Virus record (IMG/VR): IMGVR_UViG_3300029513_000230
Location: 1 to 64,000 of that record
Source of the DNA: a virus
Length of the DNA stretch: 64,000 nt
Strand: one strand, 5' to 3'
The notes beneath the pieces were generated by a model. The model did not search any database. It was not told where the DNA came from and was given only the letters and a program-made list of their open reading frames with translations. Every line of letters starts with the position of its first letter. Positions within the stretch are counted from its first letter, which is position 1. Positions 4,778 through 34,080 of this stretch are shown here, in pieces. The position numbers and the translations under genes are program-made.

Positions 4778-5626
4778 TCAGGGTCTTTTTCGCCAAAGAT
4801 TTTTCCCCGGCAGTTTGCCTTTATACACCTCCATCGGGCACTCCATTCCGATGCTCATATGAGGTCTTCGGTTGTTATAAAAGTCAATCATACGATTGAT
4901 CTCATTGATCGCCTGTTCTTTATCCCTGTACATTTCCTGCTCGTATATCCATTCGACCTTGAAGATCCCGTTCTGTCTTTCCGCCATGGCGTTGTCTGTC
5001 GGCTCATATCCTTCTGTCATGCTTATCCGTATGTGATGCTCCATGAGGCAGCTGACGTAAGCCTCGCTGGCGTATTGTGACCCCCTGTCCGAGTGGTGTA
5101 TGGTACCGCAAAGGTTGCCGCCTCCGGCGATCCGGATCGCCATGCGCAAGGCCTCTGTCGTATGCGAGGCGCTGAGACTGTCGGATAGGCACCAGCCCAA
5201 TACGGCGTGCGAATAGGCGTCGGTGACAAGATGCAAGTACAACACGTCCCCCAATATCCACACGTACGTGATGTCCGACACCCATATATGGTTGGAATAC
5301 CGCGCGTCTTTTCCCTTGATAAGATTGGGGTACCTTTTATAGACATGATTGGAGTCTGTCGTACGCCTACGTTTGTTGGGATTGAGCTTAAAGCCTTTTG
5401 ATTCATAAACCTTTAAGAACGAGTCTCGCCCGAGGGTCACAGCATGTCCCAAATCCTTTTCCAGTAAATGGAACAGCTTGAAACCTCCGATACGGGGACA
5501 ACAAAGACGATAATAGCCTATCATGTCAGCAAGAAGCTTGACGCGTTGTCTCTCCGATACATCCGCCTTCATGTTCGCGTAATACCATTGGCGTTTCTTT
5601 CCAAACAGCCCGCAAAGGGTAGCCAC
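4778..5626 (-). CDS. IS3-family transposase OrfB (DDE integrase core)
   Basis: Integrase-core motifs WVSDITYV ... HSDRGSQYAS ... E typical of rve/DDE transposases. GTG start, presumably expressed as an OrfAB fusion. Confidence 0.85.
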   Translation of the reverse strand: MATLCGLFGKKRQWYYANMKADVSERQRVKLLADMIGYYRLCCPRIGGFKLFHLLEKDLGHAVTLGRDSFLKVYESKGFKLNPNKRRRTTDSNHVYKRYPNLIKGKDARYSNHIWVSDITYVWILGDVLYLHLVTDAYSHAVLGWCLSDSLSASHTTEALRMAIRIAGGGNLCGTIHHSDRGSQYASEAYVSCLMEHHIRISMTEGYEPTDNAMAERQNGIFKVEWIYEQEMYRDKEQAINEINRMIDFYNNRRPHMSIGMECPMEVYKGKLPGKNLWRKRP

Positions 5627-5658
5627 ACTCTCATGGGGATACTCCTCACGTAACGCCG

Positions 5659-6039
5659 TTACTGTTTGGCACCATCTTTTCTGAATATACTGATGCCTTC
5701 TTCCTCTTCCGCTATCTCTATCATCTTCTCGAAGGCACGGCTACGCATCTTCTCCAGCTCCAAAGAACGACGCAATTCCTCTATGCGCTTTTGAAGGGAC
5801 TCCATATCTGTCAAATCCGATTGCTTGGGAACCATCTGTAACCTCTCTTTTGTTTCTGATGGCAAAGGTAACTGGTCCGATCCCACTGGGTATTCTTTTA
5901 GCCATCTATATATGCAAGGAGGGCTCAAAGAATATTTCTTCGTTATCGCATACTTGCTCATTCCGCTACTGTAATACTCGCGTAACACGGATAATTTAAA
6001 GGGTTCCGTGAACACTCTTTTGGGCTTTCTTTTGATCAT
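5659..6039 (-). CDS. IS3-family transposase OrfA (HTH)
   Basis: 126 aa, HTH-like N-terminus and leucine-zipper-like C-terminus typical of IS3 OrfA; immediately upstream of orfB in the -1 frame. Confidence 0.8.
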   Translation of the reverse strand: MIKRKPKRVFTEPFKLSVLREYYSSGMSKYAITKKYSLSPPCIYRWLKEYPVGSDQLPLPSETKERLQMVPKQSDLTDMESLQKRIEELRRSLELEKMRSRAFEKMIEIAEEEEGISIFRKDGAKQ

Positions 6040-6195: not shown

Positions 6196-6224
6196 AAAAA
6201 AGGGAGACTCTTTTAGAATCTCCC
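6196..6224 (-). terminator. intrinsic terminator downstream of the tRNA remnant
   Basis: Hairpin GGGAGA-n11-TCTCCC (6202-6224) followed on the minus strand by a T6 run (6196-6201). Confidence 0.5.
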
Positions 6225-6227
6225 TCG

Positions 6228-6270
6228 TGATCGGGCTGGGATTCGAACCCAGGACCCACAGCTTAGAAGT
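6228..6270 (-). tRNA. partial tRNA (3' half from anticodon loop to acceptor end; loop CUUCUAA suggests Arg-TCT); putative prophage att core
   Basis: Minus strand reads ...cttctaa gctgt gggtc CTGGG TTCGAAT CCCAG CCCGATC A. Canonical T-arm and acceptor 3' strand, but the 5' half is replaced by unrelated sequence. Confidence 0.5.
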
Positions 6271-6382: not shown

Positions 6383-7180
6383 TTAAAATCTCACGACTTT
6401 AGGCTTTTTCTGTAATACATAATATAAAGCCCTCACGCTATCTAGCGGTAAAGAGAAATCGGAAAACTCTGGAGATGGGTTTAGTGAGTGCAACGTTATC
6501 TTACCCTCGTCCATATCGCAGCCTGTCATCTGCTTTATGAGGACGGATGTCCCAAACACGACAACCCAATAAGGATGATCCTTATATCGCAGCCCATCTC
6601 TCCAATGCGATCTATCCAGCTCCCTAACAAGGACGACATCGCCTTCCTCAAAACTCTCTCTCGTCCCGTTGTCCATGCTGTCCCCTTTAACCTCAAAAGC
6701 TAAATATCTCCCATGGACAATCCGATCCCATTCGAAAGACTCGGTCTCCCAATCCTCCTTATCCGGATCAAGACGATCGCTTTCGTTAGCAAACCTGCCA
6801 TAAGCGCAAAACGGCACCTTGCTGACAGTCATACGATATCGACCATTTCCTAAGTCATAGAATTTAACGCCATTATTATTCTCAATTAAGAAATCTCCTT
6901 TTTTATCAGCAGACGCAGACACAGCTTCGACAACCACAGGAGAAGATTTTAGCATATCACCCTCTCCCGTAAAAAGCCATCCAGGGTTAACCGAGGGAAA
7001 GGTTGTCAGTATTTTATCCAATACCTTTTTACCATTATCCCTATTTATCCAATTTCCAACGACCTGCCTACTTACTCCTACCTTATCGGCAAAATCCGAA
7101 TTTGACTCACAAAAATGTGTGATAACTTTTAAAATCCTATCTCCGTTAGCTTCCATATTCATATATTTGTTTACACACAT
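6383..7180 (-). CDS. CI/LexA-like phage repressor (HTH_XRE + S24 peptidase)
   Basis: N-terminal HTH (ADKVGVSRQVVGNWIN); C-terminal S24 signature GDSM ... K (EVKGDSMDNG ... LIKQ). Confidence 0.8.
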   Translation of the reverse strand: MCVNKYMNMEANGDRILKVITHFCESNSDFADKVGVSRQVVGNWINRDNGKKVLDKILTTFPSVNPGWLFTGEGDMLKSSPVVVEAVSASADKKGDFLIENNNGVKFYDLGNGRYRMTVSKVPFCAYGRFANESDRLDPDKEDWETESFEWDRIVHGRYLAFEVKGDSMDNGTRESFEEGDVVLVRELDRSHWRDGLRYKDHPYWVVVFGTSVLIKQMTGCDMDEGKITLHSLNPSPEFSDFSLPLDSVRALYYVLQKKPKVVRF

Positions 7181-7405
7181 CCACTATAAATGATGTAGTA
7201 ATGATTATTCTGGCATGACTCAACAATATCCCGCAATCCTTCAACGACACAAGCTAAAGCCAATAAATTCAATAACAATATATTAATACCATATGACAAC
7301 ATAAATAATCATTACGTAATAAATATGGTATCAAGAGATAAAAACAGCATCTTTCGCTACATATATTTTAACAATACAAGCCTCATATAGTTAAACTATA
7401 CTTAT

Positions 7406-7490
7406 GTAAACATTATTGTTTAAAACAAACTTGCTATGTTCACATTTTTGTTTACCTTTGCAGTAAACAAAATAGATGAACATTGTTTAC
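7406..7490. promoter_or_regulatory. candidate repressor operators in the divergent early region
   Basis: GTAAACA-n4-TGTTTAA (7406-7423), TGTTTAC-n7-GTAAACA (7449-7469) and a third TGTTTAC half-site (7484-7490), between the repressor gene and the first + strand early genes. Confidence 0.4.
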
Positions 7491-7713
7491 TACAAAAATA
7501 ATAAAACAAATGAATAAAACAGCAATAAAGACAGTAAAAGTTAGAAGCTTAACATCAATACTGAGAGATCTCGGTATTGGAGACACAGTAAAAATCGATA
7601 ATAATATATTGAGTGTCAAGTCTATTGTATGTAGACTAAATAAAGAAGGATACACATTCGTGACTTCGACAAAAGGCTTAGAAAAAGGTATAAAGGTAAA
7701 ACGGGAAAAGTAA
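7483..7713 (+). CDS. hypothetical early protein (possibly starts at Met 7510)
   Basis: 76-aa basic ORF, first + strand gene after the operator region. Confidence 0.4.
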   Translation: MFTTKIIKQMNKTAIKTVKVRSLTSILRDLGIGDTVKIDNNILSVKSIVCRLNKEGYTFVTSTKGLEKGIKVKREK

Positions 7714-7916
7714 TGATAAACGAGGAAGCATTAAAAATAGTCCTTAACGATAAGACCTTTGGGCAAAGGACGGCAGCCTCCATAGTAGGAGGACGTGGAA
7801 GGCTCTACGATTTGGTAGGGAAGGGACTTATCAGATGCGAAAAACCAACAAAATCTCAGAACGGGAAATGGTTTTGTAACGCTTGGGATTGCATCAAATA
7901 CGCCACCTTAAAATAG
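7713..7916 (+). CDS. hypothetical protein
   Basis: 67-aa ORF; start overlaps the preceding stop. Confidence 0.35.
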   Translation: MINEEALKIVLNDKTFGQRTAASIVGGRGRLYDLVGKGLIRCEKPTKSQNGKWFCNAWDCIKYATLK

Positions 7917-7924
7917 GTGGATAA

Positions 7925-8010
7925 CGCCGGGTAGCACGTAGCAGGAAGCGTCCCTCTCTCCTAAAGAGGAGTAGAAATACCCCGTGGGTTCGAATCCCAC
8001 CCCGGTGACC
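7925..8010 (+). tRNA. tRNA-like element (T-arm GTGGG-TTCGAAT-CCCAC, 3' CCA; possible anticodon loop CUCCUAA, i.e. CCT) with non-canonical D region
   Basis: Acceptor pairing CGCCGGG/CCCGGTG; canonical T-loop; encoded CCA. The D-arm and variable region do not fold canonically by hand. Confidence 0.4.
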
Positions 8011-8311
8011 AAAAAAGAGTTCTTTGACTTATTGAGAAAAATCCTTATGGCTATCAAAAGGTATACGAGATATAAACGGGATAAGCGTAAGGTGAAAATA
8101 CAGGAATGGACGATAGTCCTTGCTCCCGATGTAGTTTAATCGGTTCCGGTATTGGATTTATACATATAATTAATAATGTATATATAATAAGTACGATCCC
8201 ATTCGGGTATCCTTGCGGTGGTTGGTAAAGAAGACCGTATCGTACTAAATAATACGACTTTTCCTACGAGTCGTATCTAAGATATAGCAGGAGGTTAATA
8301 CGCCCAAAAGT

Positions 8312-8485
8312 ATGACAGATTGGACAGACAATCATAAGATGACGACAGATCGGAAAGACGGTCAATCCGAGAACTACGGATTTACATTAGTGATTAATAC
8401 TCCCCCACCCGTCTATGATTCGAGTTCGAAACCGTTGGAGGTTGTGGGGGAGCGAACATTAAAATATAAAGAATATGGAAAATGA
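8312..8485 (+). CDS. small hypothetical protein (57 aa)
   Basis: ATG preceded by AGGAGG; below the ORF-track size cutoff. Confidence 0.3.
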   Translation: MTDWTDNHKMTTDRKDGQSENYGFTLVINTPPPVYDSSSKPLEVVGERTLKYKEYGK

Positions 8486-8684
8486 ATTACAAGGAAATAT
8501 CCTTGGCACAGGATTTACCGGCAATGGATTCGAGATCTCTCGAAATCCCAATGTAAGCAGCTTAGACGGTTTTTTCGTTAAAGAAAGATGCGATAGATTT
8601 TCAATGGCCTTTGCCTCATTATGTACAACGATCACTAGCGATAAAATCCATTTAATAAAAACGACAAAATTATTGAGAGTATGA
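8475..8684 (+). CDS. hypothetical protein
   Basis: ORF only. Confidence 0.3.
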   Translation: MENELQGNILGTGFTGNGFEISRNPNVSSLDGFFVKERCDRFSMAFASLCTTITSDKIHLIKTTKLLRV

Positions 8685-8986
8685 AAAAGATCCTTTCTAT
8701 CCTTAGGGGTAAAAAACAGACAGATCGACTGTCAGAGTTAAGGAGTCAAGAGATCATGAGAGCGCTTGACTCGGCGTTAAACAACGTAGAGGAGCAAAAG
8801 GTATTAGCCGACATCCGGTATCACGAGGAGATAAACAACCTAGGTGACGACGGGGTAGATTACAAGAGCAAGATCAATCAATTGATCGAGTATAAGGAGA
8901 CGATTATCAACGCGGAAAACACCATCCAAGCTATCAATGAGATCAAGAACGATCTCGAGAGCGAGGTTGAAGACATCAATCCATGA
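8681..8986 (+). CDS. hypothetical protein
   Basis: ORF with coiled-coil-like composition. Confidence 0.4.
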   Translation: MKKILSILRGKKQTDRLSELRSQEIMRALDSALNNVEEQKVLADIRYHEEINNLGDDGVDYKSKINQLIEYKETIINAENTIQAINEIKNDLESEVEDINP

Positions 8987-9341
8987 TACCATGAATGAGA
9001 TTTATTGGATCACAAGGTTAGATGCCATACAAACGTTGGCGATAATCGCAGTATTTATCTTGGGGATATTTACATTCTTGTATATTCTCTTCTGGATTAT
9101 GGAAGATGATGAAAAAGACAAGTCTAAGTTAAAAAAAATCATCTTAAAATTCGCAGCCTATATATCAATACCTGTTTTTTTACTAGTATTCATTCCGTCT
9201 AAAAGGGACATGTTGATGATTATCGGAATAGGCGGGACTATAGAATATCTCAAGTCTAATGATACCGCCAAGGAGTTGCCGGATAAGGTCATCATGGCTA
9301 TCGATAAGTTATTAGATGATACAATAGAGGAAGAAAAATGA
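8937..9341 (+). CDS. hypothetical membrane protein
   Basis: Two predicted TM helices (ILGIFTFLYILFWI, ISIPVFLLVFI). Confidence 0.4.
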   Translation: MRSRTISRARLKTSIHDTMNEIYWITRLDAIQTLAIIAVFILGIFTFLYILFWIMEDDEKDKSKLKKIILKFAAYISIPVFLLVFIPSKRDMLMIIGIGGTIEYLKSNDTAKELPDKVIMAIDKLLDDTIEEEK

Positions 9342-9610
9342 ATAAGACCGATTAACCAAGTTTTATAACAATGAAAGAAAGAAGAATCCCACCCTAGGAA
9401 ATGGCTAGGGCAGGTAGCTAACCATAATAAATTCATATTATTATTCAGGGTTACAGGGGGGTCGAGTTCCCCCCGGCTACCACATTAGCACTGTTTGAAA
9501 TGTTTATGTGTAATAAAGCTACCAAGACCTTACAATACCGCCGTGAGGCAGGCAATTAGGGAATATTAGTTTTTACTTAAACTGTGCCGGGGTGGGATTC
9601 CCCGGCAAAC

Positions 9611-9671
9611 GCTCCCTTAGCTCAGTTGGTCAGAGCCTTTGGGGTCGCCGGTTCAAGCCCGGCAGGGAGCA
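9611..9671 (+). tRNA. truncated tRNA-like element lacking an anticodon arm
   Basis: Perfect acceptor GCTCCCT/AGGGAGC, canonical D-arm GCTCAGTTGGTCAGAGC and T-arm GCCGG-TTCAAGC-CCGGC, but only 10 nt (CTTTGGGGTC) between D and T arms. 61 nt in total. Confidence 0.4.
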
Positions 9672-9787
9672 CGTTTCACCCTAACGGGTGCTTATTCAAT
9701 CAGAAAATCAGTCACAATTTACAAAGCAGGTCTCCGTCCGTGAGGATATGAGACCTTTTCACATCAAGAAATTTAAATCAACAACAT

Positions 9788-10018
9788 ATGATAAAGAGAA
9801 ACCAAGCATGGTTCTGGAAGATATTCCGGGCCATAAAGAGCATTACCATCTTTACTTTTAGGATGGTCTTAGCTACCGTACTAGGGCTAATGTCAATAGT
9901 GTCAATATTTGAGTGGTACGATAAGCCATTCAATATCCACCTCTTGATCCTAGGGATTATATCAGTTTTTATTGTGGTACATCAAATCGTGATCATGACC
10001 TATGAATCAGAAAAATGA
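9788..10018 (+). CDS. small membrane protein
   Basis: 76 aa, two TM segments. Confidence 0.4.
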   Translation: MIKRNQAWFWKIFRAIKSITIFTFRMVLATVLGLMSIVSIFEWYDKPFNIHLLILGIISVFIVVHQIVIMTYESEK

Positions 10019-10164
10019 TTCCGGGGTATTATACGTGGTACAAGCCCCTTCAAGACTTAACCGCTCAAGGAAAGACTATATACTAGACGAGTTAAAAGAG
10101 CTTAGTAAAGAGGAGCTTATAAAAATAAGAAAAGACATTGTAGAACTAATAAACGATAAATAAA

Positions 10165-11274
10165 ATGGCTGCTATAAAATCTTACAAGGGATTTGACAAA
10201 AATTTAAAATGCCGGGATTTTCAATATGAAATAGGCAAGGAATATGAGATGGATGGAGAGATCAAGGTGTGTAACAGAGGGTTTCACGCTTGCGAAAGCC
10301 CATTTGATGTTTTTGATCACTATACTATGATAGACTCTAGGTTTTGCGAAGTAGAGCAAGACGGGAATATATCCAAGGAGGATAGAGGGACAAAGATTTG
10401 CTCCTCGAAAATAAAAATAAAAGCAGAGTTAAAATTGGCTGACATGATCTATCTTGGAGTCGAATGGCTAAAAGAGATCACATCACCTGAAAAAATAAAA
10501 ACGAGCATAAAGGATAATTCATCCGGCTACGGTGCCAAGATAGGATCATCCGGCTACGGTGCCAAGATAGGATCATCCGGCAACGATGCCAAGATAGGAT
10601 CATCCGGCAACGATGCCAAGATAGGATCATCCGGCAACTATGCCCAGATAGGATCATCCGGCAACGATGCCCAGATAGGATCATCCGGCAACGATGCCCA
10701 GATAGGATCATCCGGCAACTATGCCCAGATAGGATCATCCGGCTACGGTGCCAAGATAGGATCATCCGGCTACGGTGCCAAGATAGGATCATCCGGCTAC
10801 GGTGCCAAGATAGGATCATCCGGCTACGATGCCCAGATAGGATCATCCGGCAACTATGCCCAGATAGGATCATCCGGCGACGGTGCCCAGATAGGATCAT
10901 CCGGCGACGATGCCCAGATAGGATCATCCGGCAACGATGCCCAGATAGGATCATCCGGCAACGATGCCAAGATAGGATCATCCGGCAACTATGCCCAGAT
11001 AGGATCATCCGGCAACTATGCCAAGATAGGATCATCCGGCGACGGTGCCCAGATAGACAGCACAGGCGAAGGCTGTGTCATCATGTGCGCAGGTATTAAC
11101 TCTGTAGCAAAAGCCTCAAAAGGATCATGGATAACATTATCCGAATGGTCTTATTCTGATAAAAAGCAAAGATATATCCCCGTTTGCGTAAAAACGGAAT
11201 TTGTTGATGGGGAGAAGATAAAGGCGGATACATATTACAAATTAGCTGGAGGGGTATTTAAAGAAATACAATAG
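10165..11274 (+). CDS. repeat-containing protein (N-terminal Cys/His-containing domain + 20 x 9-aa IGSSG-x-x-A-x repeats)
   Basis: 369-aa ORF. The central 540 nt consist of a near-perfect 27-bp tandem array. Confidence 0.7.
   Translation: MAAIKSYKGFDKNLKCRDFQYEIGKEYEMDGEIKVCNRGFHACESPFDVFDHYTMIDSRFCEVEQDGNISKEDRGTKICSSKIKIKAELKLADMIYLGVEWLKEITSPEKIKTSIKDNSSGYGAKIGSSGYGAKIGSSGNDAKIGSSGNDAKIGSSGNYAQIGSSGNDAQIGSSGNDAQIGSSGNYAQIGSSGYGAKIGSSGYGAKIGSSGYGAKIGSSGYDAQIGSSGNYAQIGSSGDGAQIGSSGDDAQIGSSGNDAQIGSSGNDAKIGSSGNYAQIGSSGNYAKIGSSGDGAQIDSTGEGCVIMCAGINSVAKASKGSWITLSEWSYSDKKQRYIPVCVKTEFVDGEKIKADTYYKLAGGVFKEIQ
10519..11058 (+). repeat. 27-bp tandem repeat array (~20 copies) inside CDS 10165-11274
   Basis: Unit ggatcatccggc-NAC-GNT-gcc-MAG-ata. 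Variation is confined to three codons (N/Y/D; D/G/Y; K/Q). Confidence 0.85.
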
Positions 11275-11427
11275 TCCCAAGGCATTGCTTATCGGAGGAT
11301 CGCATGAGAGACATCTACATCAAAGACCCCGACGGCGAACCGGAGTACGACGGGGAGGAGGACAACGAGGAATATGAGGAGAGCATGGAAGAGCTTAGGT
11401 TCCTGTTTGATTCTTATAATTGGTAAA

Positions 11428-11584
11428 CCTGCCCTTACGAGGTGCAACCCCGCCCCAGACCGGCAACCGATATCCTAGACAAGTGGTAGGCCATGACGAT
11501 ATCATTGGCCCGGTGGAAAGGGACACGGTAATAAGGGCAGGGCGGCCGATGGTCTTAGTCCGGGTTCGACTCCCGGAGGCTGAC
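11428..11584 (+). ncRNA. structured RNA/tRNA-like element (long-range stem CCTGCCCTTA...TAAGGGCAGG; T-arm CCGGG-TTCGACT-CCCGG)
   Basis: Canonical T-loop GGTTCGACTCC followed by 7 nt + C. No matching 5' acceptor strand found by hand. The overlapping ORFs (11395-11598 -, 11420-11635 +) look spurious. Confidence 0.3.
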
Positions 11585-11604
11585 GAATTTAAATACACGA
11601 TAAC

Positions 11605-12279
11605 ATGGACAAATCAGAAGAGATTGACAAATTAGCGATAGCGTTGGCCAAGTTCCAAGGATCGCTAGAGCAACCAAGCCTCAATTCCGAGGTTGAGGTA
11701 GAAACTAAAATGGGAGGAAAGTACAAGTTTAAATACGCAGACCTATCCGAATGCAAAAGGGCGGCGAAACAACCATTAGCTGAAAACGAACTTGCTGTAT
11801 GTCAGCTAATAGAGGATGATTACTCTATCCGTACCATACTGCTTCATTCCTCCGGTCAATGGATATCGTCCAAGGTAAGGATGCCATCTAATACGGCGAA
11901 CGCTCAATCCATCGGATCGGCCATCACGTACGCCAAGAGATACGCCTTTTGCGCCATCCTAGGCATCGTGGCTGACGATGACGAGGACGCTAACATAGCG
12001 AGCGGTAATTCCGCCCAAAAGGAGCAGCCTAAGGAGCAGCCTAAAAAAACGGCAAACTCCAGAGTAAAGAAAGAGCTTACGAGAGATCATCTAAACAATG
12101 AGAGCGCAATGAAATCCATATCGGAGTGGCTATACAATAAAGAGAAGATAGCCAAGGAGGCCAACCAGCCATTCTCCGTAGAAAGCGTTATCAGCAATGC
12201 TTACATTATAGGAAAGGTAGAGATGGATTCTTTCGTAGAGATATATAACAACTATAAAATAAACAATAACCTGTCATGA
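11605..12279 (+). CDS. erf: ERF-family single-strand annealing recombinase
   Basis: Conserved ERF core ...SAITYAKRYAFCAILGI...; acidic and Gln-rich C-terminal tail. Confidence 0.75.
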   Translation: MDKSEEIDKLAIALAKFQGSLEQPSLNSEVEVETKMGGKYKFKYADLSECKRAAKQPLAENELAVCQLIEDDYSIRTILLHSSGQWISSKVRMPSNTANAQSIGSAITYAKRYAFCAILGIVADDDEDANIASGNSAQKEQPKEQPKKTANSRVKKELTRDHLNNESAMKSISEWLYNKEKIAKEANQPFSVESVISNAYIIGKVEMDSFVEIYNNYKINNNLS

Positions 12280-12755
12280 GCAAAGAACTAGAGCTAAGCG
12301 GCAAGACCCCGCTAACGAAAAGCGATATCGAGGCTTTATCAGTAGACCTTTTGAACCCGGTACTAGAAGGAGAGGTAGATCCCGTATCACACGTCGTCAA
12401 GTTAAAGGCGATGCAAGAGACCATCAAGAGGACGCTGGACGATGACCGGATGAAGGACGCCGTCCTTTCCGAGATCGAGAAATACGGGAAGGAGCGCTCT
12501 TGGAACGGGGCCACGGTCAAGATAAAGGAGACAGGCGTATCCTACGACCACTCCAATTGCAATGATCCGGTCTACGCTAGGCTGATCGAGGAAAGGATGC
12601 TTCTCGATGCCAAGATAAAAGAACGGGAGGCGTTCCTGAAGACGGTGCCGGATAATACCACGGTCGTTGATGACGAGACCGGGGAGATATACACGATCCA
12701 TCCGGCGATAAGGATGGCTAAGATGTCATACTCTATAACATTCAACAAAAAATAA
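12276..12755 (+). CDS. hypothetical phage protein
   Basis: ORF overlapping the erf stop (ATGA). Confidence 0.5.
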   Translation: MSKELELSGKTPLTKSDIEALSVDLLNPVLEGEVDPVSHVVKLKAMQETIKRTLDDDRMKDAVLSEIEKYGKERSWNGATVKIKETGVSYDHSNCNDPVYARLIEERMLLDAKIKEREAFLKTVPDNTTVVDDETGEIYTIHPAIRMAKMSYSITFNKK

Positions 12756-12852
12756 TCCACGCATGCCGTGGCTACGGGACGGTGGTTATCCCCGCCGTAG
12801 CGAATAACCGACCGCCCCGCTTATAAATCTAAAATTTAAAATCATAAACATT

Positions 12853-13158
12853 ATGGCGAATTTATACGGCTCAATCTGCTTGAGCGACATACCGAAGGAG
12901 TTGATGAAAAAAGTAATGACGGCCAAGGGAGAGAAGATCTTCCTCAATATCTCGATCGGGGAGAAAAAAGAGCCTGTCACGTTCGACAACCGCACCTATA
13001 CGCATTATGTGTCTTGCGCCCCAAGGAAAGAGGAGCGAAAGGAAGGTGTTTATTACGGCATAGGTGACTTGATGGAATCCACGTTCAAGAACAACATCCC
13101 CTCACCGGAGGATATCAACAACGCCCCATCGGTCGATGATTCGGATCTCCCCTTTTAA
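12853..13158 (+). CDS. hypothetical protein
   Basis: ORF only. Confidence 0.45.
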   Translation: MANLYGSICLSDIPKELMKKVMTAKGEKIFLNISIGEKKEPVTFDNRTYTHYVSCAPRKEERKEGVYYGIGDLMESTFKNNIPSPEDINNAPSVDDSDLPF

Positions 13159-13160
13159 TC

Positions 13161-13595
13161 ATGGAACTATACTTGCTCAACACCGCCAGCGGATTGAGGC
13201 CATGCTATGATTCCGACTATGACGAGAAGAAAAAGCTCAAGCTAGGCAAGATCTACAAGGCCAAGATAACGCTGGCACGGAACATAGATTTCCATAGGAA
13301 GTATTTCGCCTTGATAAATTGCGCATGGTCTTACCAGAACGAGAAGACCACGGCGCATTTCAAGGAGAGCGTGGAGTGCTTCCGGAAGACTGTAGAGATC
13401 GCCGCCGGGCATTGCGATACGGCCTATAGTATATCACGTAAGGAATGGATAGAGATCCCGAAGTCGATAGCCTTCGACAAGATGGACGAGGCCGAGTTCA
13501 TGGATCTCTACGAGCGTGTGAAGGACGTGCTTTTCTCGGTATTCCTTCGGGGGATATCAGAATACGATTTCATGAGAAACCTATCTAATTTTTAG
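13161..13595 (+). CDS. hypothetical protein
   Basis: ORF only. Confidence 0.45.
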   Translation: MELYLLNTASGLRPCYDSDYDEKKKLKLGKIYKAKITLARNIDFHRKYFALINCAWSYQNEKTTAHFKESVECFRKTVEIAAGHCDTAYSISRKEWIEIPKSIAFDKMDEAEFMDLYERVKDVLFSVFLRGISEYDFMRNLSNF

Positions 13596-13881
13596 TCATG
13601 AGAAAAAGCGACAGGCCTCCAAATTACCTTATCAATAAGATCGTGAGGCATGCAAACATTATTATCACAGCCCCTTATGGCAGCGTCAGATACATGGATG
13701 CGGCCAGACTCCTTAAAAAGGAGGTCAAGAAGCTAGAAACCTATAAGAAAAATGAGAGATCTTAAATACTGCCTCAATGAGGATTGCTGTAAAAGACATT
13801 GCCTCTGCCATCAACGGCAAAAACATTGGAAAGACCCGTCTAAAAAAGATGGGGAAACTGTAAGGCCGGAATCGGCCTTAC

Positions 13882-14535
13882 TTGACGGGAATACTCCTTG
13901 CAAAGGGTATGTCCCACAATACGAAAGAAGAAAATATAATATTAAATATTAATGATATGGGAAAGAGAAAAGAAGGTTCTTACAACTTTGACAAGAACGT
14001 ACAAATGTTTTTGGCTTGCGCAAAGGACGATTACCGTCCCGCTATGGAATGCGTATATTTCAAGGGAGATTGGGCCTACGCCAGTGACGGACATATTATC
14101 GTTAAAAACAGGATATCCGAATGCTCAAACCTTGACGAAGCCATGATACAGGCGTTAGACGGCAAATTACTGCATAGTCTATTTTTTAAGGACATGTTGA
14201 AATATGATGACATCCTTATCTCTGATGACGGAATAGAGTGCCATAAGAAGAATGACAAGGCGTTCTTCTATTTCGCGGATGAGAACTTAAAATATCCAGA
14301 CGCAGAGAAAGTGATACAAAATTATCAGGCAAAACCCAGCGTTCCGCTTCCTCAAATATCCTTTAACATGGGCTTATTCGACATAATGAGGAAAGCTTTA
14401 TATGAATGCGAACGATGCACGGCTACTTTCAAGGGCGTTAACGATGCCATCATTTTTGACAGCATGGTAGAAGACGTAAGCAGTATCGGATTAATCATGC
14501 CTTTATACAATGAGGCACTAAACCAACAAATATGA
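13882..14535 (+). CDS. hypothetical protein
   Basis: ORF only. Confidence 0.45.
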   Translation: MTGILLAKGMSHNTKEENIILNINDMGKRKEGSYNFDKNVQMFLACAKDDYRPAMECVYFKGDWAYASDGHIIVKNRISECSNLDEAMIQALDGKLLHSLFFKDMLKYDDILISDDGIECHKKNDKAFFYFADENLKYPDAEKVIQNYQAKPSVPLPQISFNMGLFDIMRKALYECERCTATFKGVNDAIIFDSMVEDVSSIGLIMPLYNEALNQQI

Positions 14536-14691
14536 GAAATTTTATCAACAAACATTGGGTATTGATATTGGCCATAGCCTTTATTCCGGCAGGGAACAGA
14601 GTTTTTAACCATGTTGACGCATGGCTAGGAATAGTCATTATGTTAACTAGTTCATTATTTATAATTTACAAACTATTTAATTTTATCAAGA

Positions 14692-15504
14692 ATGAAAAGG
14701 ACAAGTTTTAAGTTTTTTACTATAGCGATAATCGCTATGGTATTTTTATCCTCTTGTGAACGTGTAGCACCTAATTACGCTGGGGTATTGATGGAAAATT
14801 ACGGGAAACAAGGGAAGGAGGATTTCAAGGTCGTATCAGGCAGGGTTTCAACTTGGGAATGGGGCACGGAATTATTTCAAGTCCCGCTATTCGACCAACG
14901 AGGCGAGTTCGGAAGCCCTGTCACGTTAAAAGCCGCAGACAATACGGAGTTTAACGCACGCCCCACTTACTCCTACAAGGTTATCAAAAACAGGGCAATA
15001 GACGTTGTTTTCGATAACAAGCACATAGACAAGGCCGATACGGAATCAGGCAAAGACGGTTTCATGCAATCATTGGAGGATAACATACTAGAACCTCGCA
15101 TCTATGACCTGATCAAGGAGGAAAGCCGTAAACATAAGACCGACAGCTTAATGGCAGACGGAGGTTCGCTTCTTTTTGAGAAACGCCTTGAGCAGATTGT
15201 AGATAAGGAATTCGAGAAAAGAGGTCTTCAATTACTCACATTCTCGGCGCAATTAGAGTTTTCCAAGGCGGTTCGCGAGAAAATTGATAGTAGGAATGAA
15301 GTTAACACCAATATTTCGGTTTTAGACCAGCAGATAGCGGAGCAACGGAAACGCAACGAGTTGGAGCAATTGAAAACGGAACAAGCGTTAATCACCTCGA
15401 GAGGATTGACTAAAGAAATTCTTTATAAGCAGTTTATCGACAAATGGGATGGTCGTACCCCCATTTATGGAGCGATACCCGATTTAATAAAGATTCAGAA
15501 CTAA
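14692..15504 (+). CDS. lipoprotein, possible SPFH/band-7-like
   Basis: Signal peptide plus lipobox (FLSSC); C-terminal coiled-coil with EAE/Q-rich segment resembling SPFH-family tails. Confidence 0.45.
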   Translation: MKRTSFKFFTIAIIAMVFLSSCERVAPNYAGVLMENYGKQGKEDFKVVSGRVSTWEWGTELFQVPLFDQRGEFGSPVTLKAADNTEFNARPTYSYKVIKNRAIDVVFDNKHIDKADTESGKDGFMQSLEDNILEPRIYDLIKEESRKHKTDSLMADGGSLLFEKRLEQIVDKEFEKRGLQLLTFSAQLEFSKAVREKIDSRNEVNTNISVLDQQIAEQRKRNELEQLKTEQALITSRGLTKEILYKQFIDKWDGRTPIYGAIPDLIKIQN

Positions 15505-15586
15505 GGATATTAATATTAGAGTGTGTTTTTCATGGTATTAGATTTAGTTTTTATCCCCGCCGTCCGTGAGGATACGCGGGGATTTC

Positions 15587-15664
15587 GGGCGGTAAGTATT
15601 CCGGGATGAAACGTTACGGAGTGCGCATGACGTAAAGAGGCCGGTTCGATCCCGGCACCGTCCA
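15587..15664 (+). tRNA. tRNA-like element with canonical T-arm/acceptor but aberrant anticodon region
   Basis: Acceptor GGGCGGT/ACCGTCC with one G-U pair; T-arm GCCGG-TTCGATC-CCGGC. The middle forms a TTACG/CGTAA stem with a 12-nt loop, i.e. no canonical 7-nt anticodon loop. Confidence 0.35.
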
Positions 15665-15809
15665 CGAATAACAAACATCTAATTATGGAAACAATACAGA
15701 ATTTAGATCACTTGACAATGGCCATGTACCTTATCACCGCAATACTCGGACTTATAGCAGTGATCTTGGCCATATTCTTACTAATAAACGATAAAGAAAG
15801 GAGGAATCC

Positions 15810-16307
15810 ATGGGAAAGAAAAGATACGAATTAGTGATAGCCGTTGACCCGGACATAGATAAATCCGGCGTATGCGTACTGTCTCCTTCAACGAGACAGC
15901 TAATTCTAAAGAGCCTCCCCTTCCCTTCCTTGATTGACTTTATCAAGGAGGCAAGAGAGAGATACAAGGGGATAGACATAGTGGTCATTGTCGAGGCCGG
16001 ATGGCTTAACGAAAAAAGCAACTACCATAAGGCTAGGGGTAAATCCGGCGAGAGGATAGCCAAGTATGTAGGTCGTAACCAGCAAACCGGGATATTGCTT
16101 CTCCAGATGTGCGAGCACATAGGGATTCCCTGCGAGGAGGTAAAGCCTTTGACCAAGCATTGGAAAGGGGACGAGGGCAAGATAACCCATGAGGAACTCT
16201 CCTACATAGTCGGTCCCTTGCCTAAGAGAACGAACCAAGACCAACGTGACGCTACGATTCTGGCTTGGTGGTACGCCGATCTACCAATAAAAATAAAGAC
16301 TTGGTGA
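15810..16307 (+). CDS. RuvC-like Holliday-junction resolvase
   Basis: N-terminal VIAVDPDIDKSGV and C-terminal DQRDATILAWW acidic motifs typical of phage RuvC-family resolvases. Confidence 0.7.
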   Translation: MGKKRYELVIAVDPDIDKSGVCVLSPSTRQLILKSLPFPSLIDFIKEARERYKGIDIVVIVEAGWLNEKSNYHKARGKSGERIAKYVGRNQQTGILLLQMCEHIGIPCEEVKPLTKHWKGDEGKITHEELSYIVGPLPKRTNQDQRDATILAWWYADLPIKIKTW

Positions 16308-16465
16308 TATGGCGAAGAAGAAAGACGAGCAAGAAAAGGTGAAATGTGGCGATTGCGCCAACGGACATCCTCACAAGGGGCTATGCGTTTGGTGCATCAT
16401 ACATGACGCTGGACGGGTAGCTAACTCCACGAGATTTTGTAACACTTTTAAAAAGAGAAAATAAT

Positions 16466-16786
16466 ATGGAACAAGAGAAATTTGATTTATGGTGCGTGGT
16501 CGAGTTATTCGGCCATTCAAGGATAGCGGGAAGATGTACGGAACAGAACGTGGCCGGTACCAATATGCTTCGGGTAGACGTTCCGGATACGAGTAACCAG
16601 CCCGGTTTCACCCGCTTTCTCTCATCGGGGGCCATATACGCTATAAATCCTGTCTCCGAGGAAGTGGCAAGGCAAATGGCGGAGAACCTGCAAATACAAC
16701 CTGTAAACATATGGGATGTAAACCACCTTGTAGACCAGAAACTAAAGTCCTTGCAGGGAGGAGAATCCCCAGATTTTGATTTTTAG
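16466..16786 (+). CDS. hypothetical protein
   Basis: ORF only. Confidence 0.45.
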   Translation: MEQEKFDLWCVVELFGHSRIAGRCTEQNVAGTNMLRVDVPDTSNQPGFTRFLSSGAIYAINPVSEEVARQMAENLQIQPVNIWDVNHLVDQKLKSLQGGESPDFDF

Positions 16787-16952
16787 TATATGGATAAGGG
16801 TTTCATAATGCTCTCTCGTAAGTTTTTTTCTAATGAAATGTGGGAAGCAGCCCGGACATTCTCGGAGTGCGAAGCGTGGCTTGATCTAATACAATCGGCA
16901 CGATTTGAGGCAACCGACACGATCGAATGTATCGGAGGTAGAGAAATAACAT

Positions 16953-17525
16953 ATGGGAGAGGATAATAAATCCTCTCTATTTTATAATAATCATTTAGAT
17001 AACTGTATGAAAAGAGGACTAAGCAAGCTTACCCCCAAGGAGCTATCTATGTTAAATAAGACTATTAAAGGGAAACGGATAGTATCCTTTTATTCTGAAG
17101 ATGGGGATATAATTAATGAAATGATGCCTTCTTGCGATAAACTTCGAAAATTCAAAATTAAGCATGCTATCATTTATGCACTTGATGGAACAATAGTAAA
17201 GCGCATTCCAATCGGTGGCAGAGCAATATATCTTTTTGCAGAGAATCATGGAATAAGCTCAAGAATGAGAGAGGCAATTCGTGAAGAGGCCATGAAACTA
17301 AATGACAGTATAAAAAGAAAAGTATTTGAAAGAGACGGTAGATATTGTGCTGTTTGTGGATGTTCTGAAAAACTCTGCATAGATCATATTATTCCTGTAT
17401 CAAGAGGAGGCTTTACAGTTTTGGACAATCTTCAAGTATTATGTGAGAAATGTAATTTACAGAAAAGCAATATGACAATGGAAGAATTTAAATTATGGAG
17501 AAATAAACATGGCACGACCAAATAA
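16953..17525 (+). CDS. HNH endonuclease
   Basis: CAVCGC...[11 protein letters not shown]...[10 protein letters not shown], an HNH motif with a zinc-binding Cys pair. Confidence 0.8.
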
Positions 17526-32547: not shown

Positions 32548-32940
32548 TTATAAAACCACTATGCTCTCCTCCTCTCTCGCCGCCTCCCACTCGGCGAAAT
32601 CGCTATCCACACGGTCTTTCAACGCCTTCCTCTCGTTAAGGAACGTCTTATAAGACTCCACGTATGACAAGTCCAGTATGCCTAGCTGGGCGGCGTTGTA
32701 GTCGTTCAGCTTCTTTTGCTCCACGTCCTTGTCCCATAGGGCGTTGATACAGGCCTCCAATATCTTGTTGGCCGTCAACGTGGGCCATACCCTGACCTCG
32801 TTGTAACTATAGGAGATCACGGGGGCCATATCGTCACCCATCTCCCTTGTCTCCTCTCTAACGTCCCACCGGTACAGGTAGGAACCGTCACCGTCCCGCT
32901 CTATTCTAGGCGGCATTGTGTCGCTCCATGATCGCTTCAT
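32548..32940 (-). CDS. hypothetical acidic protein
   Basis: ORF; start overlaps the RT stop. Confidence 0.4.
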   Translation of the reverse strand: MKRSWSDTMPPRIERDGDGSYLYRWDVREETREMGDDMAPVISYSYNEVRVWPTLTANKILEACINALWDKDVEQKKLNDYNAAQLGILDLSYVESYKTFLNERKALKDRVDSDFAEWEAAREEESIVVL

Positions 32941-34000
32941 AAAACTCTGGTTTTAAAATTTTCTTAGCTAAATGCTTGCTATCGCTATCATATATCCAGC
33001 CCAGCCAACCGGCTAGACCTGCCTTGTATTCCGTTAAGGATATATTCGGGACTTTATTCAATCTAGCCGCCGCACGACATAGATTTTGCTTAGTCCTCTT
33101 CCTTATCCGTATATGCTCCTTGTAAAATACGAAACCCACGAAATCTACACCACGGCCGCTTTTATCCGATCTTCTCTCAGCGATCTTAAATATCTGGTAA
33201 TTCCCTTTCAGCTCCAACTTCAACACGGCCAATCTATCGATAAGCCACGGAAGTAATACGTTTCTCAAGAAACACTTATCATGATGGAAAAAAGTCATGT
33301 CATCCGCGTATCTGATATAATGCCTTATATCTATAATCTCCTTTATCTCGTGATCCAGATAGGCGAGATAAAGATTCGCAAGATATTGGCTAAGATAGTT
33401 CCCGATCGGAACGCCGGGAGCGGAATCGATGATCTCATCCAACAACATAAGCAAGCGATCGTCCTTGATCTTCTTCCGAGCGATGCCTTTTAACACCTCA
33501 TGGTCTATTGACGGATAGAATTTGCGGATATCAACCTTGAGGCAATAGACGGATTCACGATCGGACAAAGCCCGTCTTGTCCTCTTATACGCCTCCGTTA
33601 TTCCTCTTCCCTTGATACATGATGTCGTATCAGCCGTGAACACGGAAACCCATATAGGTTCCATGACGTTCATTATGGCATGATGCAATATCCTGTCCGG
33701 ATAATAAGGGAGCTTGAAGATGATCCTTTCTTTTGGCTCATAGATGGTATCAGTCCGGTACTTGGAAGTCTTGAACGTGCCATCCAGCAGAGACTTTAGC
33801 AAACGGCTTAGATTACCTTCTTTGTCCTTGTCAAACAACCTTATGCCGTATGAATCCTTCTTTCCCCTTCGGGCTTTCATGTCCGCAAGTATCAAGTTGT
33901 CCATATTCGCTATCTTATCAAATAAATTCCCTGTTCTCTTCATTTTATTGTCATTAATTTGCTTTTTATCATAGGGAGTCTTCGGTTTCCCTACCAACAC
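32906..34000 (-). CDS. DGR reverse transcriptase
   Basis: RT motifs: N-terminal RTGNLFDKIANMDNLILADMKARRGKK; motif 4 IGNYLSQYLANLYL (DGR-specific SQ); catalytic YIRYADDMTFF; thumb DFVGFVF. Confidence 0.85.
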   Translation of the reverse strand: MLVGKPKTPYDKKQINDNKMKRTGNLFDKIANMDNLILADMKARRGKKDSYGIRLFDKDKEGNLSRLLKSLLDGTFKTSKYRTDTIYEPKERIIFKLPYYPDRILHHAIMNVMEPIWVSVFTADTTSCIKGRGITEAYKRTRRALSDRESVYCLKVDIRKFYPSIDHEVLKGIARKKIKDDRLLMLLDEIIDSAPGVPIGNYLSQYLANLYLAYLDHEIKEIIDIRHYIRYADDMTFFHHDKCFLRNVLLPWLIDRLAVLKLELKGNYQIFKIAERRSDKSGRGVDFVGFVFYKEHIRIRKRTKQNLCRAAARLNKVPNISLTEYKAGLAGWLGWIYDSDSKHLAKKILKPEFYEAIMERHNAA

Positions 34001-34080
34001 CCTTTATATGGGGAGACTTTTTTCGCCAAGAGGCGAGGCCACCATCCCTGTTTGTTATCTAAATATCTTTTCCCCCTCTC

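Follow-up and report, generated by a model that had tools for sequence, protein, structure and literature searches.

A Bacteroides prophage is the source of an early operon in which four intergenic loci (A to D) lie co-oriented with the genes, and comparison with relatives indicates that these loci are conserved 'tRNA slots', with canonical tRNAs in related phages. Every locus has a hairpin and a small RNA coupled to it. The slots, this coupling and the much wider class to which locus B belongs all went unrecognized in an earlier note on the same window (the whole 64,000-nucleotide stretch of DNA analysed here). We document the anatomy and conservation of the elements, the selection on their stems and their linkage to hairpins and small RNAs. 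We give about even chances to the proposal that they are RNase P/Z processing marks, similar to t-elements, that release the neighbouring small RNAs; the cleavages themselves we infer. The relevant features, in window coordinates, are:

6228-6270, minus strand: att-type remnant at the prophage/host junction, comprising the 3' part of a tRNA and its terminator
6383-7180, divergent from the promoter box at 7453-7460: repressor-like gene with Peptidase_S24 and CI HTH domains
7453-7460, plus strand: consensus Bacteroides -7 promoter box (TACCTTTG), the only one on this strand between 7000 and 17000
7903-7920, plus strand: hairpin CCACCT-TAAAAT-AGGTGG, ending 4 nt 5' of locus A
7925-8011, plus strand: locus A, tRNA-Arg(CCU) of 84 nt plus an encoded CCA (8009-8011), found with ARAGORN and the Rfam tRNA model
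9586-9606, plus strand: hairpin GCCGGGG-TGGGATT-CCCCGGC followed by AAAC, directly before locus B
9611-9671, plus strand: locus B, tRNA-like and 61 nt long; acceptor, D arm and T arm are present and the anticodon arm is missing
9672-9759, plus strand: conserved trailer small RNA of slot B, about 90 nt
11281-11303, plus strand: dead remnant of a 68-nt tRNA-like element, of which the 5' acceptor strand and D arm survive and the 3' half is deleted
11428-11541, plus strand: conserved non-coding stretch of about 115 nt with a long-range closing helix, ending 7 nt before the locus C minihelix
11549-11584, plus strand: core minihelix of locus C (acceptor, UAG, T arm), located by T-loop match and homology
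15523-15546, plus strand: 24-nt sequence (GUGUUUUUCAUGGUAUUAGAUUUA) identical to the 5' seed of the FopS/GibS small RNAs and unique in the window
15553-15583, plus strand: hairpin CCGUCC-GUGA-GGAUA, whose loop is conserved; it lacks a U-run and ends 3 nt 5' of locus D
15587-15664, plus strand: locus D, a 78-nt mimic of the tRNA top half with a non-tRNA core
32906-34000: reverse transcriptase

The T-loop motif GGTTCRANYCC occurs five times in the window against an expectation of 0.58, and none of 100 shuffles contained five or more. Four of the matches are loci A, B, C and D; one further match lies on the minus strand (6239-6249). The earlier description of these loci as non-canonical tRNA-like elements holds for three of the four, to which standard tools give no ordinary tRNA fold, and the loci are not chance matches. 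A stable hairpin stands 3-7 nt upstream of each element, and each element abuts a small RNA. Among 38 clusters, 71% have a hairpin ending at this distance, compared with 10.7% of control windows, a statistic with some circularity, as hairpin motifs served to fetch many of the loci. For most elements outside slot B, the discriminator is 15-28 nt from the next start codon. The box at 7453-7460 is the probable early rightward promoter, and since it is the single consensus box on the plus strand between 7000 and 17000, internal RNAs would need processing.

Locus A, although odd in shape, is probably a functional decoding tRNA-Arg(CCU). ARAGORN reports a tRNA-Arg(CCT) of 87 nt, the Rfam tRNA model scores it at 40 bits (gathering score 29), and its anticodon arm is intact, with a 5-bp stem and the 7-nt loop CUCCUAA. 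The CCT anticodon loop, long variable arm (12-13 nt) and CCA noted previously are all present, but the middle judged non-canonical by hand folding is not, as both tools fold the locus as a tRNA, albeit with an irregular D region. Relatives carry canonical tRNA-Arg(CCT) genes of 73-75 nt in this slot, in three sequence types, and AGG accounts for 36% of Arg codons in the late genes.

Locus B is exactly as first described, with 10 nt (CTTTGGGGTC) between the D and T stems and perfect acceptor (7 bp), D (4 bp) and T (5 bp) stems. It is not called by ARAGORN, and scores 44.9 bits with the Rfam tRNA model, above the gathering threshold, with a few nucleotides replacing the anticodon arm. Of 79 loci, 26 have a full tRNA(CAU) in slot B and 29 have the armless form; the slot can be filled by elements whose acceptor sequences are unrelated (GCTCCCT, GGATGGG, GGATGTA), and in L149-type loci the 5' half alone remains. 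The preceding hairpin is kept in 79 viral contigs, with its loop inverted in some relatives. Locus B descends from, or is allelic with, a tRNA(CAU). Stems in the slot are 99.6-100% paired (56 units), and the tRNA(CAU) shows compensatory changes at four of its five anticodon-stem pairs. The armless form has diversified into 13 variants (36 loci), spread over several recombinant backgrounds, in which none of 208 pair cells is broken and G18G19 and UUCRA are retained; 2 of 32 paired columns vary, compared with 9 of 29 unpaired columns (p=0.018).

The trailer RNA is present in 80 of 80 units, whatever tRNA or tRNA-like element stands before it, and in all of its 52 distinct versions it abuts the 3' end of that element. 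It opens with a 5' hairpin (CACCC-UAAC-GGGUG) that shows covariation, continues with CUUAUUCAAUCA as a single-stranded segment, and closes with a terminator made of the hairpin at 9729-9755, whose loop is CCGUCCGUGAGGAUA, and a UUUU run.

Locus B belongs to a class of armless phage tRNAs, about 60 bases long, that is widespread and apparently undescribed. Diverse viral contigs contain about 40 further examples of 59-65 nt; their acceptor stems are of many kinds, and most stand alone beside unrelated neighbours. In Vibrio phage K476 and its relatives, an armless tRNA with an encoded CCA lies inside a tRNA cluster. The position after the D stem is C in 44 of 65 armless sequences and in 1 of 34 full-length ones (p=7e-11).

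At locus C, previously taken to be a 150-nt structured RNA ending in a T arm (11428-11584), the T arm is real (CCGGG-UUCGACU-CCCGG), but the stability of the larger fold is ordinary (z=-1.14). The acceptor, AUGGUCU/AGGCUGA (11549-11555 with 11577-11583), is weak, with 6 pairs of which 3 are G.U; pairing is kept through an A-U to U.G change. Homology to a 68-nt tRNA-like element (AAGGTCTTAGC...CCGGGTTCGACTCCCGGAGGCCT) in three related loci (L006, L015 and L105) indicates that the 36-nt minihelix is derived from that element, and alignment with L015 and L105 also identified the remnant at 11281-11303. The start codon of an ORF with an ERF domain (Erf) is 20 nt past the locus C discriminator. The stretch at 11428-11541 is 95-98% identical across 11 loci, with a helix register that shifts between variants, and is unlikely to be coding: a single ORF (11420-11635) overlaps it, and a 2-nt indel falls close to where that ORF starts.

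Locus D is unseen by ARAGORN, and by the Rfam tRNA model even at E<=10. Its acceptor has 7 bp (GGGCGGU/ACCGUCC, including G1-C72, G2-C71 and G3.U70, with A73), its T stem 5 bp (T arm GCCGG-UUCGAUC-CCGGC), and its core loop contains UGCGCA. Two folds are possible: the 12-nt loop originally proposed, in which TTACG/CGTAA enclose GAGUGCGCAUGA, and the fold of minimum free energy, in which GUAUUCCG pairs with CGGAGUGC instead. The next ORF starts 20 nt 3' of the element. In relatives the slot holds at least nine unrelated tRNA-like types, none of which has a canonical anticodon arm; the top half is always kept (acceptor 6-7 bp, T stem 5 bp, GGTTCGANNCC-type loop) and the core can vary freely. Copies of the D type hardly differ from one another (4 variants), and within-type covariation is therefore absent for D. 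One variant (L075) encodes CCA, which is absent from loci B, C and D, and the element is lost altogether in L089 and L183.

The seed copy upstream of locus D partially matches Rfam RF04319 and RF04182. Anchoring on the seed alone, we collected 132 phage loci in 87 distinct contexts: 63 have a tRNA-like element without a U-run, 59 a U-run terminator without a tRNA-like element, 1 has both and 9 have neither. The terminator and the hairpin plus tRNA-like element are thus almost mutually exclusive (Fisher p=3e-16), which places the tRNA-like element in the terminator's position.

In the proposed mechanism, the four slots sit in one long early transcript of a temperate Bacteroides phage, with a decoding tRNA-Arg(CCU) still present in slot A. 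Slots B, C and D retain only the top half, in which the acceptor stem stacks on the T arm (in B with the D/T-loop elbow as well), and this half is what the host RNase P, RNase Z and CCA-adding enzyme read. The 5' end of an element would be an RNase P cleavage site, and the cut would leave the upstream RNA with a protective hairpin 3-7 nt away; at locus D the RNA so released would be the phage copy of the FopS seed RNA. Cutting at the 3' end would free the terminator-ended small RNA of about 90 nt at locus B, and at loci C and D an mRNA with a leader of about 20 nt. RNase P accepts pre-tRNA mimics that lack the anticodon stem-loop, and changes in the T loop inactivate them (PMC4693268); the tRNA-like processing signals of plant mitochondria, the t-elements, offer a precedent (PMC1920247). 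Several observations fit these cutting marks less well. The start-codon spacing of about 20 nt could be the minimum room for a ribosome in a compact genome, the recurrent palindromic UGCGCA loop of D-like cores is unexplained by a pure processing role, and some armless tRNAs are found where a cutting mark would seem superfluous: the Vibrio phage copy lies within a tRNA cluster, and others stand alone in phages of many unrelated kinds, before genes that are likewise unrelated.

Those last occurrences suggest a role for the excised armless RNA itself. The top-half RNAs could be the functional product, acting in trans as small stable tRNA mimics, for example decoys, a role that the earlier note had raised, or sponges for defence nucleases such as Cas12a3, MenT/AbiE-type nucleotidyltransferase toxins or host tRNA enzymes, and we regard this as possible though rather unlikely. 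The many mostly solo armless tRNAs in diverse contigs, the Vibrio phage copy with its CCA and the derived C shared across the class, which points to a coherent design, argue for it. Known defences also aim at the acceptor end, as with Cas12a3, for which acceptor stem, T arm and CCA tail are the bound parts (PMC12851939), and the MenT toxins (PMC7450476). However, such mimics leave unexplained the unrelated acceptor sequences that fill slot B, the strict alternation with terminators after FopS seeds and the narrow range of hairpin distances. We identified no cognate defence gene, and B, C and D do not encode CCA. It is less likely still that B, C and D are functionless, decaying pseudogenes, with stems intact from recent deletion and hairpin-shaped arms lost by replication slippage. 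Decay is clear at 11281-11303, in L149-type loci and in L089 and L183, and acceptor covariation in the armless class could come from different parent tRNAs. Yet armless B has diversified across recombinant backgrounds with no pair broken, the D slot always retains its top half while its core changes, and simple excision of an arm would not give the shared C where ordinary tRNAs have a purine.

AlaRS requires the acceptor helix only. Locus D, and other elements of its kind that carry G3.U70 and A73, might be charged with alanine outside decoding, like the tRNA-like domain of tmRNA or charged minihelices. The identity set of D recurs in L043-type elements and in the armless L311 and L318, and the L075 variant encodes CCA. 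We consider this improbable, as G3.U70 is absent from most D-slot types, chance could give G.U at position 3, and the elements have no mRNA-like or tag-coding part; ARAGORN found no tmRNA in the window. Least probable, at a very low level, are other roles suggested in the earlier note, in which the loci would be satellite att sites, remains of tRNA-targeted integration, or primers. Although tRNA genes are common integration targets of phages and other mobile elements, all four loci own a 5' acceptor strand and lie inside the early operon, with an order conserved across relatives and no adjacent integrase. The prophage junction is elsewhere, with the repressor to one side of it and Cas9 plus an IS element to the other, and the genuine att remnant is the tRNA 3' fragment at 6228-6270. 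Nothing supports a primer role, and nothing links the reverse transcriptase to the loci. The suggestion of introns likewise fell away: Rfam scans of the window and related loci gave no group I intron match, and 'introns' of 4-9 nt appear in ARAGORN only under the forced intron option.

The putative cutting marks have parallels in several known systems. In E. coli 3'ETS(leuZ), a trailer small RNA, in the MHV68 TMERs (tRNA-miRNA units) and in MALAT1-mascRNA, where mascRNA is a tRNA-like by-product of about 61 nt, a tRNA or tRNA-like fold sets the end of an adjoining regulatory RNA via RNase P or RNase Z. Those systems use full tRNAs or eukaryotic or herpesviral machinery, whereas the phage tRNA lacks an anticodon arm and is yet maintained, and the RNA presumed to be released carries a host small-RNA seed. 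The C4 antisense RNA of P1/P7 and the stable RNAs of the T4 tRNA cluster are matured by RNase P, with ends that depend on acceptor mimicry; C4 lacks both the T arm and the D arm, and the T4 RNAs are set in a tRNA cluster rather than in repeated slots between protein-coding genes. Compared with ordinary phage tRNA genes (RF00005), of which A is one, B lacks the anticodon arm, C the D and anticodon arms, and D a recognisable tRNA core. Plant mitochondrial t-elements share non-canonical cloverleafs with a perfect GGTTCRANYCC T arm and acceptor stem, and adjoin mRNA ends within long transcripts; their cutting by RNase P and RNase Z was proposed and partly shown (PMC1920247). Unlike them, the phage elements are in an operon, are coupled to hairpin-ended small RNAs, and include further reduced forms (the 61-nt armless element and the 36-nt minihelix). 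The seed copy is identical to the FopS 5' seed of Bacteroides (24/24; FopS/GibS, RF04319 and RF04182), which represses susC-type mRNAs and whose sequence was noted in one phage (PMC11697453). It differs from FopS in scoring 30.1 bits where the gathering score is 56, in its hairpin, and in having no U-run terminator and apparently no promoter of its own, with a tRNA-like element following instead. If the elements are cutting marks, they would provide small RNAs from inside an operon without ending transcription.

The window is a prophage in a Bacteroides-type host genome. The earlier note had drawn attention to four early loci with tRNA-type T-loops, and these are real: the T-loop motif GGTTCRANYCC occurs five times in the window against 0.58 expected. 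The four loci (A to D) lie on the coding strand in intergenic gaps of the early arm, and everything right of the repressor is on the plus strand to ~26 kb. Each marks a conserved position, here called a slot, that holds tRNAs or tRNA derivatives in related viral contigs, which were obtained by motif scans (individual related loci carry L numbers). Bacteroides phage BF1-TP2, the nearest cultured relative and the sole one in the phage collection searched, is 95% identical to window positions 10548-13958 and has B, C and a D-slot element. Only one plus-strand match to the Bacteroides -7 box consensus, TAnnTTTG, occurs in 7000-17000 outside the repressor gene, at 7453, so the early arm is probably one long transcript. 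The main features are as follows.

1-4275, minus strand: Cas9 gene with RuvC_III and HNH_4 domains, extending beyond the window start
4778-6039, minus strand: IS3-type transposase pair
6196-6226, minus strand: terminator belonging to the tRNA 3' fragment below
6228-6270, minus strand: 3' part of a tRNA, from the anticodon loop CUUCUAA (Arg-UCU-like) to the discriminator, with no 5' half
6383-7180, minus strand: CI/S24-type repressor
7925-8011, plus strand: locus A
9611-9671, plus strand: locus B
11549-11584, plus strand: locus C
15587-15664, plus strand: locus D
32906-34040, minus strand: reverse transcriptase ORF (RVT_1), its start overlapped by an RT-17 RNA motif (Rfam RF03020, 43.4 bits)

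The Cas9 gene and the transposase pair directly adjoin the prophage end, and the reverse transcriptase ORF is probably a diversity-generating retroelement of the late region. On the minus strand at 10511-10808, inside the plus-strand ORF 10165-11274, promoter-scan matches (TTGGCA...TATCTT) recur every 27 nt because the DUF7666 protein encoded there, which has a collagen-like region, contains 9-codon units in tandem; L006, L015 and L105 have 24-nt repeats at this position.

Locus A is called by ARAGORN as an 87-nt tRNA-Arg(CCT) with CCA, the one encoded CCA that had been noticed among the four loci, and scores 40 bits against Rfam RF00005 (gathering threshold 29 bits). The non-canonical middle attributed to it holds for a 12-13-nt variable arm and an irregular D region, but its anticodon arm (CCUCU-CUCCUAA-AGAGG, a 5-bp stem and a 7-nt loop) is normal, which is true of A alone among the four. 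Slot A in relatives carries canonical 73-75-nt tRNA-Arg(CCT) genes of three unrelated sequence types, and AGG makes up 36% of Arg codons in the late genes of the window versus 11% in the Cas9/IS genes; A is therefore most simply a working though unusual tRNA. Each canonical slot A tRNA has a hairpin upstream and a common downstream sequence. A short, very basic ORF (MAIKRYTRYKRDKRKVKIQEW...), read by eye and below the cut-off of the ORF list, lies at 8046-8141 on the plus strand and starts 38 nt past the tRNA-Arg.

Locus B is armless, that is, a tRNA without an anticodon arm, as had been proposed. It scores 44.9 bits against the Rfam tRNA model with that arm missing, about 5 nt replacing it in the alignment, and receives no ARAGORN call; like A and D, it has a 7-bp acceptor stacked on a 5-bp T stem whose loop is of the UUCRANY type. 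Among 79 slot B loci, anchored on the upstream hairpin only, 29 have the 61-nt armless form and 26 a full tRNA(CAU). A 68-nt tRNA-like element occupies nine and tRNA-Leu-like ends around inserts twelve (elements of 104 or 162 nt); two retain a 5' half only, and one is a chance anchor match in an unrelated contig. The full tRNA(CAU) is a putative tRNA-Ile2, which it resembles, and the phage often uses ATA codons.

Across 56 distinct slot B units, 99.6-100% of positions in the acceptor, D and T stems are paired, and the covariation check proposed in the earlier note found compensatory changes at four of the five anticodon-stem pairs of the full tRNAs. The armless form occurs as 13 variants on several recombinant backgrounds, with 2 of 32 paired columns variable versus 9 of 29 unpaired ones (p=0.018) and none of 208 pair cells broken, a pattern that free decay would not give. 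A coding explanation for slot B was rejected: armless and full forms differ by 13 nt in length, yet the downstream sequence is conserved. Directly after the slot B element, all 80 units have a conserved ~90-nt trailer RNA that begins with a covarying hairpin, continues with conserved single-stranded sequence and ends in a U-run terminator, and it is kept regardless of which tRNA or tRNA-like element precedes it. The 7-nt loop of the hairpin before B (9593-9599) exists in either orientation on identical stems, as TGGGATT or as the reverse complement AATCCCA depending on the phage, a loop inversion within a palindrome (compared with L010, L089, L117 and L063).

At locus C, a 150-nt structured RNA had been suggested, but the stability of that fold is unremarkable (z=-1.14); the T arm stands, and the tRNA-like part is the minihelix 11549-11584 only. 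This has six acceptor pairs (three of them G.U), five T-stem pairs and no anticodon arm, and gave neither an Rfam tRNA match, even at E<=10, nor an ARAGORN call. The T arm of C recurs in a 68-nt tRNA-like element of L006, L015 and L105. The window segment 11281-11303 is the dead 5' half of one copy of that element, and in the minihelix copy at 11549-11584 acceptor pairing has been preserved through a change from A-U to U.G. Variants of the long-range helix at C shift register and show no clean covariation. Coding was likewise discarded here, as the sole ORF over C has a 2-nt indel past its start.

Locus D escapes both ARAGORN and the Rfam tRNA model, even at E<=10, while having a 7-bp acceptor and a perfect T arm. 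The 12-nt loop reported for its core is one possibility (11-12 nt), but an alternative fold was also found. G3.U70 and A73 of D make up the alanine identity set. Within-type covariation of D could draw on only four near-identical variants. In both C and D the next start codon lies 20 nt past the discriminator, and for element clusters other than those of slot B the spacing is mostly 15-28 nt.

Upstream of D, positions 15523-15546 match the 5' single-stranded seed of the Bacteroides small RNAs FopS and GibS (RF04319 and RF04182) at 24 of 24 nt, and the 5' R1' seed feature of RF04319 is present. This seed represses susC-type mRNAs in B. thetaiotaomicron, and a FopS sequence in a phage has received a single passing mention (PMC11697453). 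Over the whole RF04319 model the window RNA scores 30.1 bits, below the threshold of 56 that would call for the seed together with a Rho-independent terminator hairpin; its hairpin differs from that of the model and is followed by AUUUC and D, without a U-run. After the shared FopS-like seed and hairpin, slot D of relatives holds at least nine unrelated tRNA-like types of ~60 to >150 nt, all combining an acceptor of 6-7 bp with a 5-bp T stem and canonical T loop, and none with a canonical anticodon arm.

For the classification of U-runs and tRNA-like elements, a cruder hairpin-motif anchor was replaced by the seed, and 132 loci were obtained via the FopS seed alone. In 63 of these, a hairpin without a U-run is followed by a tRNA-like element, whereas 59 have an ordinary terminator without such an element; one has both and nine have neither, five of the nine showing an imperfect tRNA-like element by eye. 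This mutual exclusion (Fisher p=3e-16 on distinct contexts) indicates that the tRNA-like element replaces the terminator where the seed RNA is intra-operonic.

Several further features of the tRNA-like elements deserve mention. The sequence UGCGCA, usually within an 8-10-nt palindrome, lies in the core of 6-7 of 41 element types versus 0.64 expected (P ~5e-6) and, where the fold is clear, sits in a hairpin loop (15622-15627 in D); a search of the rest of the window for kissing partners gave 12 sites versus 9.1 expected, nothing notable. Many relatives have elements with tRNA-Leu-like ends (GGTGGTATGGCGGAATTGGTAGACGC ... T arm ... acceptor) in which inserts of 60-190 nt replace the anticodon and variable arms (L001 3829-3944, L064, L089, L006, L007 11246-11500 and L029). 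Two of them share a common ~190-nt insert in different acceptor frames, and one corresponds to gp8 in the BF1-TP2 annotation; gp8, annotated over the D-slot element, is probably spurious. A 75-nt D-slot element in L026 (11788-11862) and L250 has an 8-nt "anticodon" loop (CCAAAAGA) on a stem with compensatory changes between the two, and this arm may be quadruplet-type or non-decoding and under selection.

Each of the four elements starts 3-7 nt past a stable hairpin, and such a hairpin is found in 71% of 38 element clusters versus 10.7% of control windows, a figure that is partly circular as some loci were obtained through hairpins. In the 15-nt loop motif CCGUCC-GUGA-GGAUA, a short inner helix carries a GNRA tetraloop; the motif does not vary, whereas the outer stems are free to. 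It occurs in >100 viral contigs (noted at 9735-9748 and 15561-15574 of the window and at loci L002-L120), both in terminators and upstream of tRNA-like elements, and resembles a binding site for a protein or an RNA, perhaps of boxB type, more than a simple terminator.

What the reduced elements keep is the acceptor/T-arm stack and, in B, also the D/T-loop elbow. These are the recognition parts for RNase P, RNase Z and the CCA-adding enzyme. The elements also have a conserved T arm and acceptor with a non-canonical remainder, placed between cistrons of a long transcript, which is the anatomy of the t-elements with which plant mitochondria form mRNA ends (PMC1920247) and to which we liken B, C and D as processing signals. 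RNase P accepts pre-tRNA mimics without an anticodon stem-loop, and T-loop changes inactivate them (PMC4693268). From these retained parts and precedents, B, C and D are read as processing marks for RNase P/Z, with predicted cleavage, a reading to which we give an even chance and which the mutual exclusion of terminator and tRNA-like element and the hairpin 3-7 nt upstream support indirectly. They would release flanking small RNAs and separate cistrons while transcription is not stopped, and A would do likewise while still decoding. Processing punctuation coupled to small-RNA production is the most likely candidate function of the elements.

Other roles raised in the earlier note fared less well. 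An intron-containing tRNA would have a model match inside the anticodon loop and an insert of roughly at least 200 nt; Rfam found no group I intron in the window or in the 14 related loci scanned, and the extra nucleotides of D number only 4-5. D can be called by ARAGORN as "tRNA-Arg(GCG), 4-nt intron" only with introns forced, which we regard as an artefact. Neither ARAGORN nor Rfam detected a tmRNA in the window, whose tRNA-like ends would enclose a tag-peptide frame and pseudoknots, and a primer role is among the interpretations mostly not supported. Att sites or leftovers of integration were rejected: each of the four loci retains its two acceptor strands and is internal to the prophage. 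A tRNA 3' part alone, at the prophage/host junction, is found instead at 6228-6270 (minus strand), between the IS/Cas9 side and the repressor, and is the probable attL remnant of a host tRNA gene used for prophage integration.

Armless elements also occur more widely. A distant BLAST search with B matched Vibrio phage K476 and six relatives, in which an armless element of 60 nt shares the acceptor stem of B, encodes CCA and sits between tRNA-Met(CAT) and tRNA-Arg(CCT); its annotation is that of a tRNA, but ARAGORN does not call it. A pattern scan in which only 9-18 nt separate a common D arm from a T arm matched 82 viral contigs from many environments, including ~40 distinct elements of 59-65 nt with many different acceptor stems. 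We define the armless class by a length of 59-65 nt, a 7-bp acceptor, a canonical D arm, a C after the D stem, a short U-rich linker, a variable-loop-like GGGUC and a 5-bp T stem; B fits every feature, and C and D fall outside. In an alignment of 43 armless elements, 98% of stem cells are paired and all seven acceptor pairs show compensatory variation, although the alignment was prefiltered for intact stems and different parent tRNAs would yield the same pairing picture. A C follows the D stem in 44 of 65 armless elements versus 1 of 34 full-length tRNAs in that data set (p=7e-11), which is harder to explain by independent deletions. Armless elements are mostly solo, intergenic and co-oriented with their neighbours, many directly 3' of a terminator; their downstream genes are unrelated, and no common one was found. 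Scans of representative bacterial genomes gave no match to the armless junction or the FopS-type hairpin, and the literature searched held no description of the window's tRNA-like elements or of armless phage tRNAs.

It is possible, if rather unlikely, that these elements form a coherent, undescribed ~60-nt armless tRNA family in phages of many hosts and that the excised RNAs act in trans. If so, the family would combine a D stem capped by C and a short U-rich loop with variable but paired acceptor and T stems, and Bacteroides phages would use the tRNA top half (acceptor stem stacked on T arm) as a scaffold in which other modules, UGCGCA-palindrome loops or 60-190-nt inserts, replace the anticodon arm. 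Such RNAs could act as sponges for immunity factors or toxins directed against the tRNA acceptor end, could carry an amino acid (D has G3.U70) or could base-pair among themselves via palindromic loops, and processing would merely be their production route. Cas12a3 is an acceptor-end-directed defence and a possible target of armless RNAs (PMC12851939). The punctuation reading is a known principle in a new variant; the armless phage tRNA class is unexpected and possibly overlooked.

If the punctuation reading is correct, a common gut Bacteroides phage group uses stripped-down tRNA shapes as punctuation that allows small RNAs to be made from inside an operon, and the tRNA-punctuation principle of mitochondria extends to bacteriophages. 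With the exact 24-nt FopS/GibS seed and its own hairpin (15523-15583), the phage would be able to repress susC-type transporter mRNAs of the host, and by shutting down SusC-type nutrient transporters it would gain a direct handle on host surface proteins and glycan metabolism. The armless phage tRNAs are a side result that may outweigh the main one in importance: since they have been ignored or annotated as tRNAs in phages of many environments, phages may contain an entire class of small RNAs that has escaped notice.
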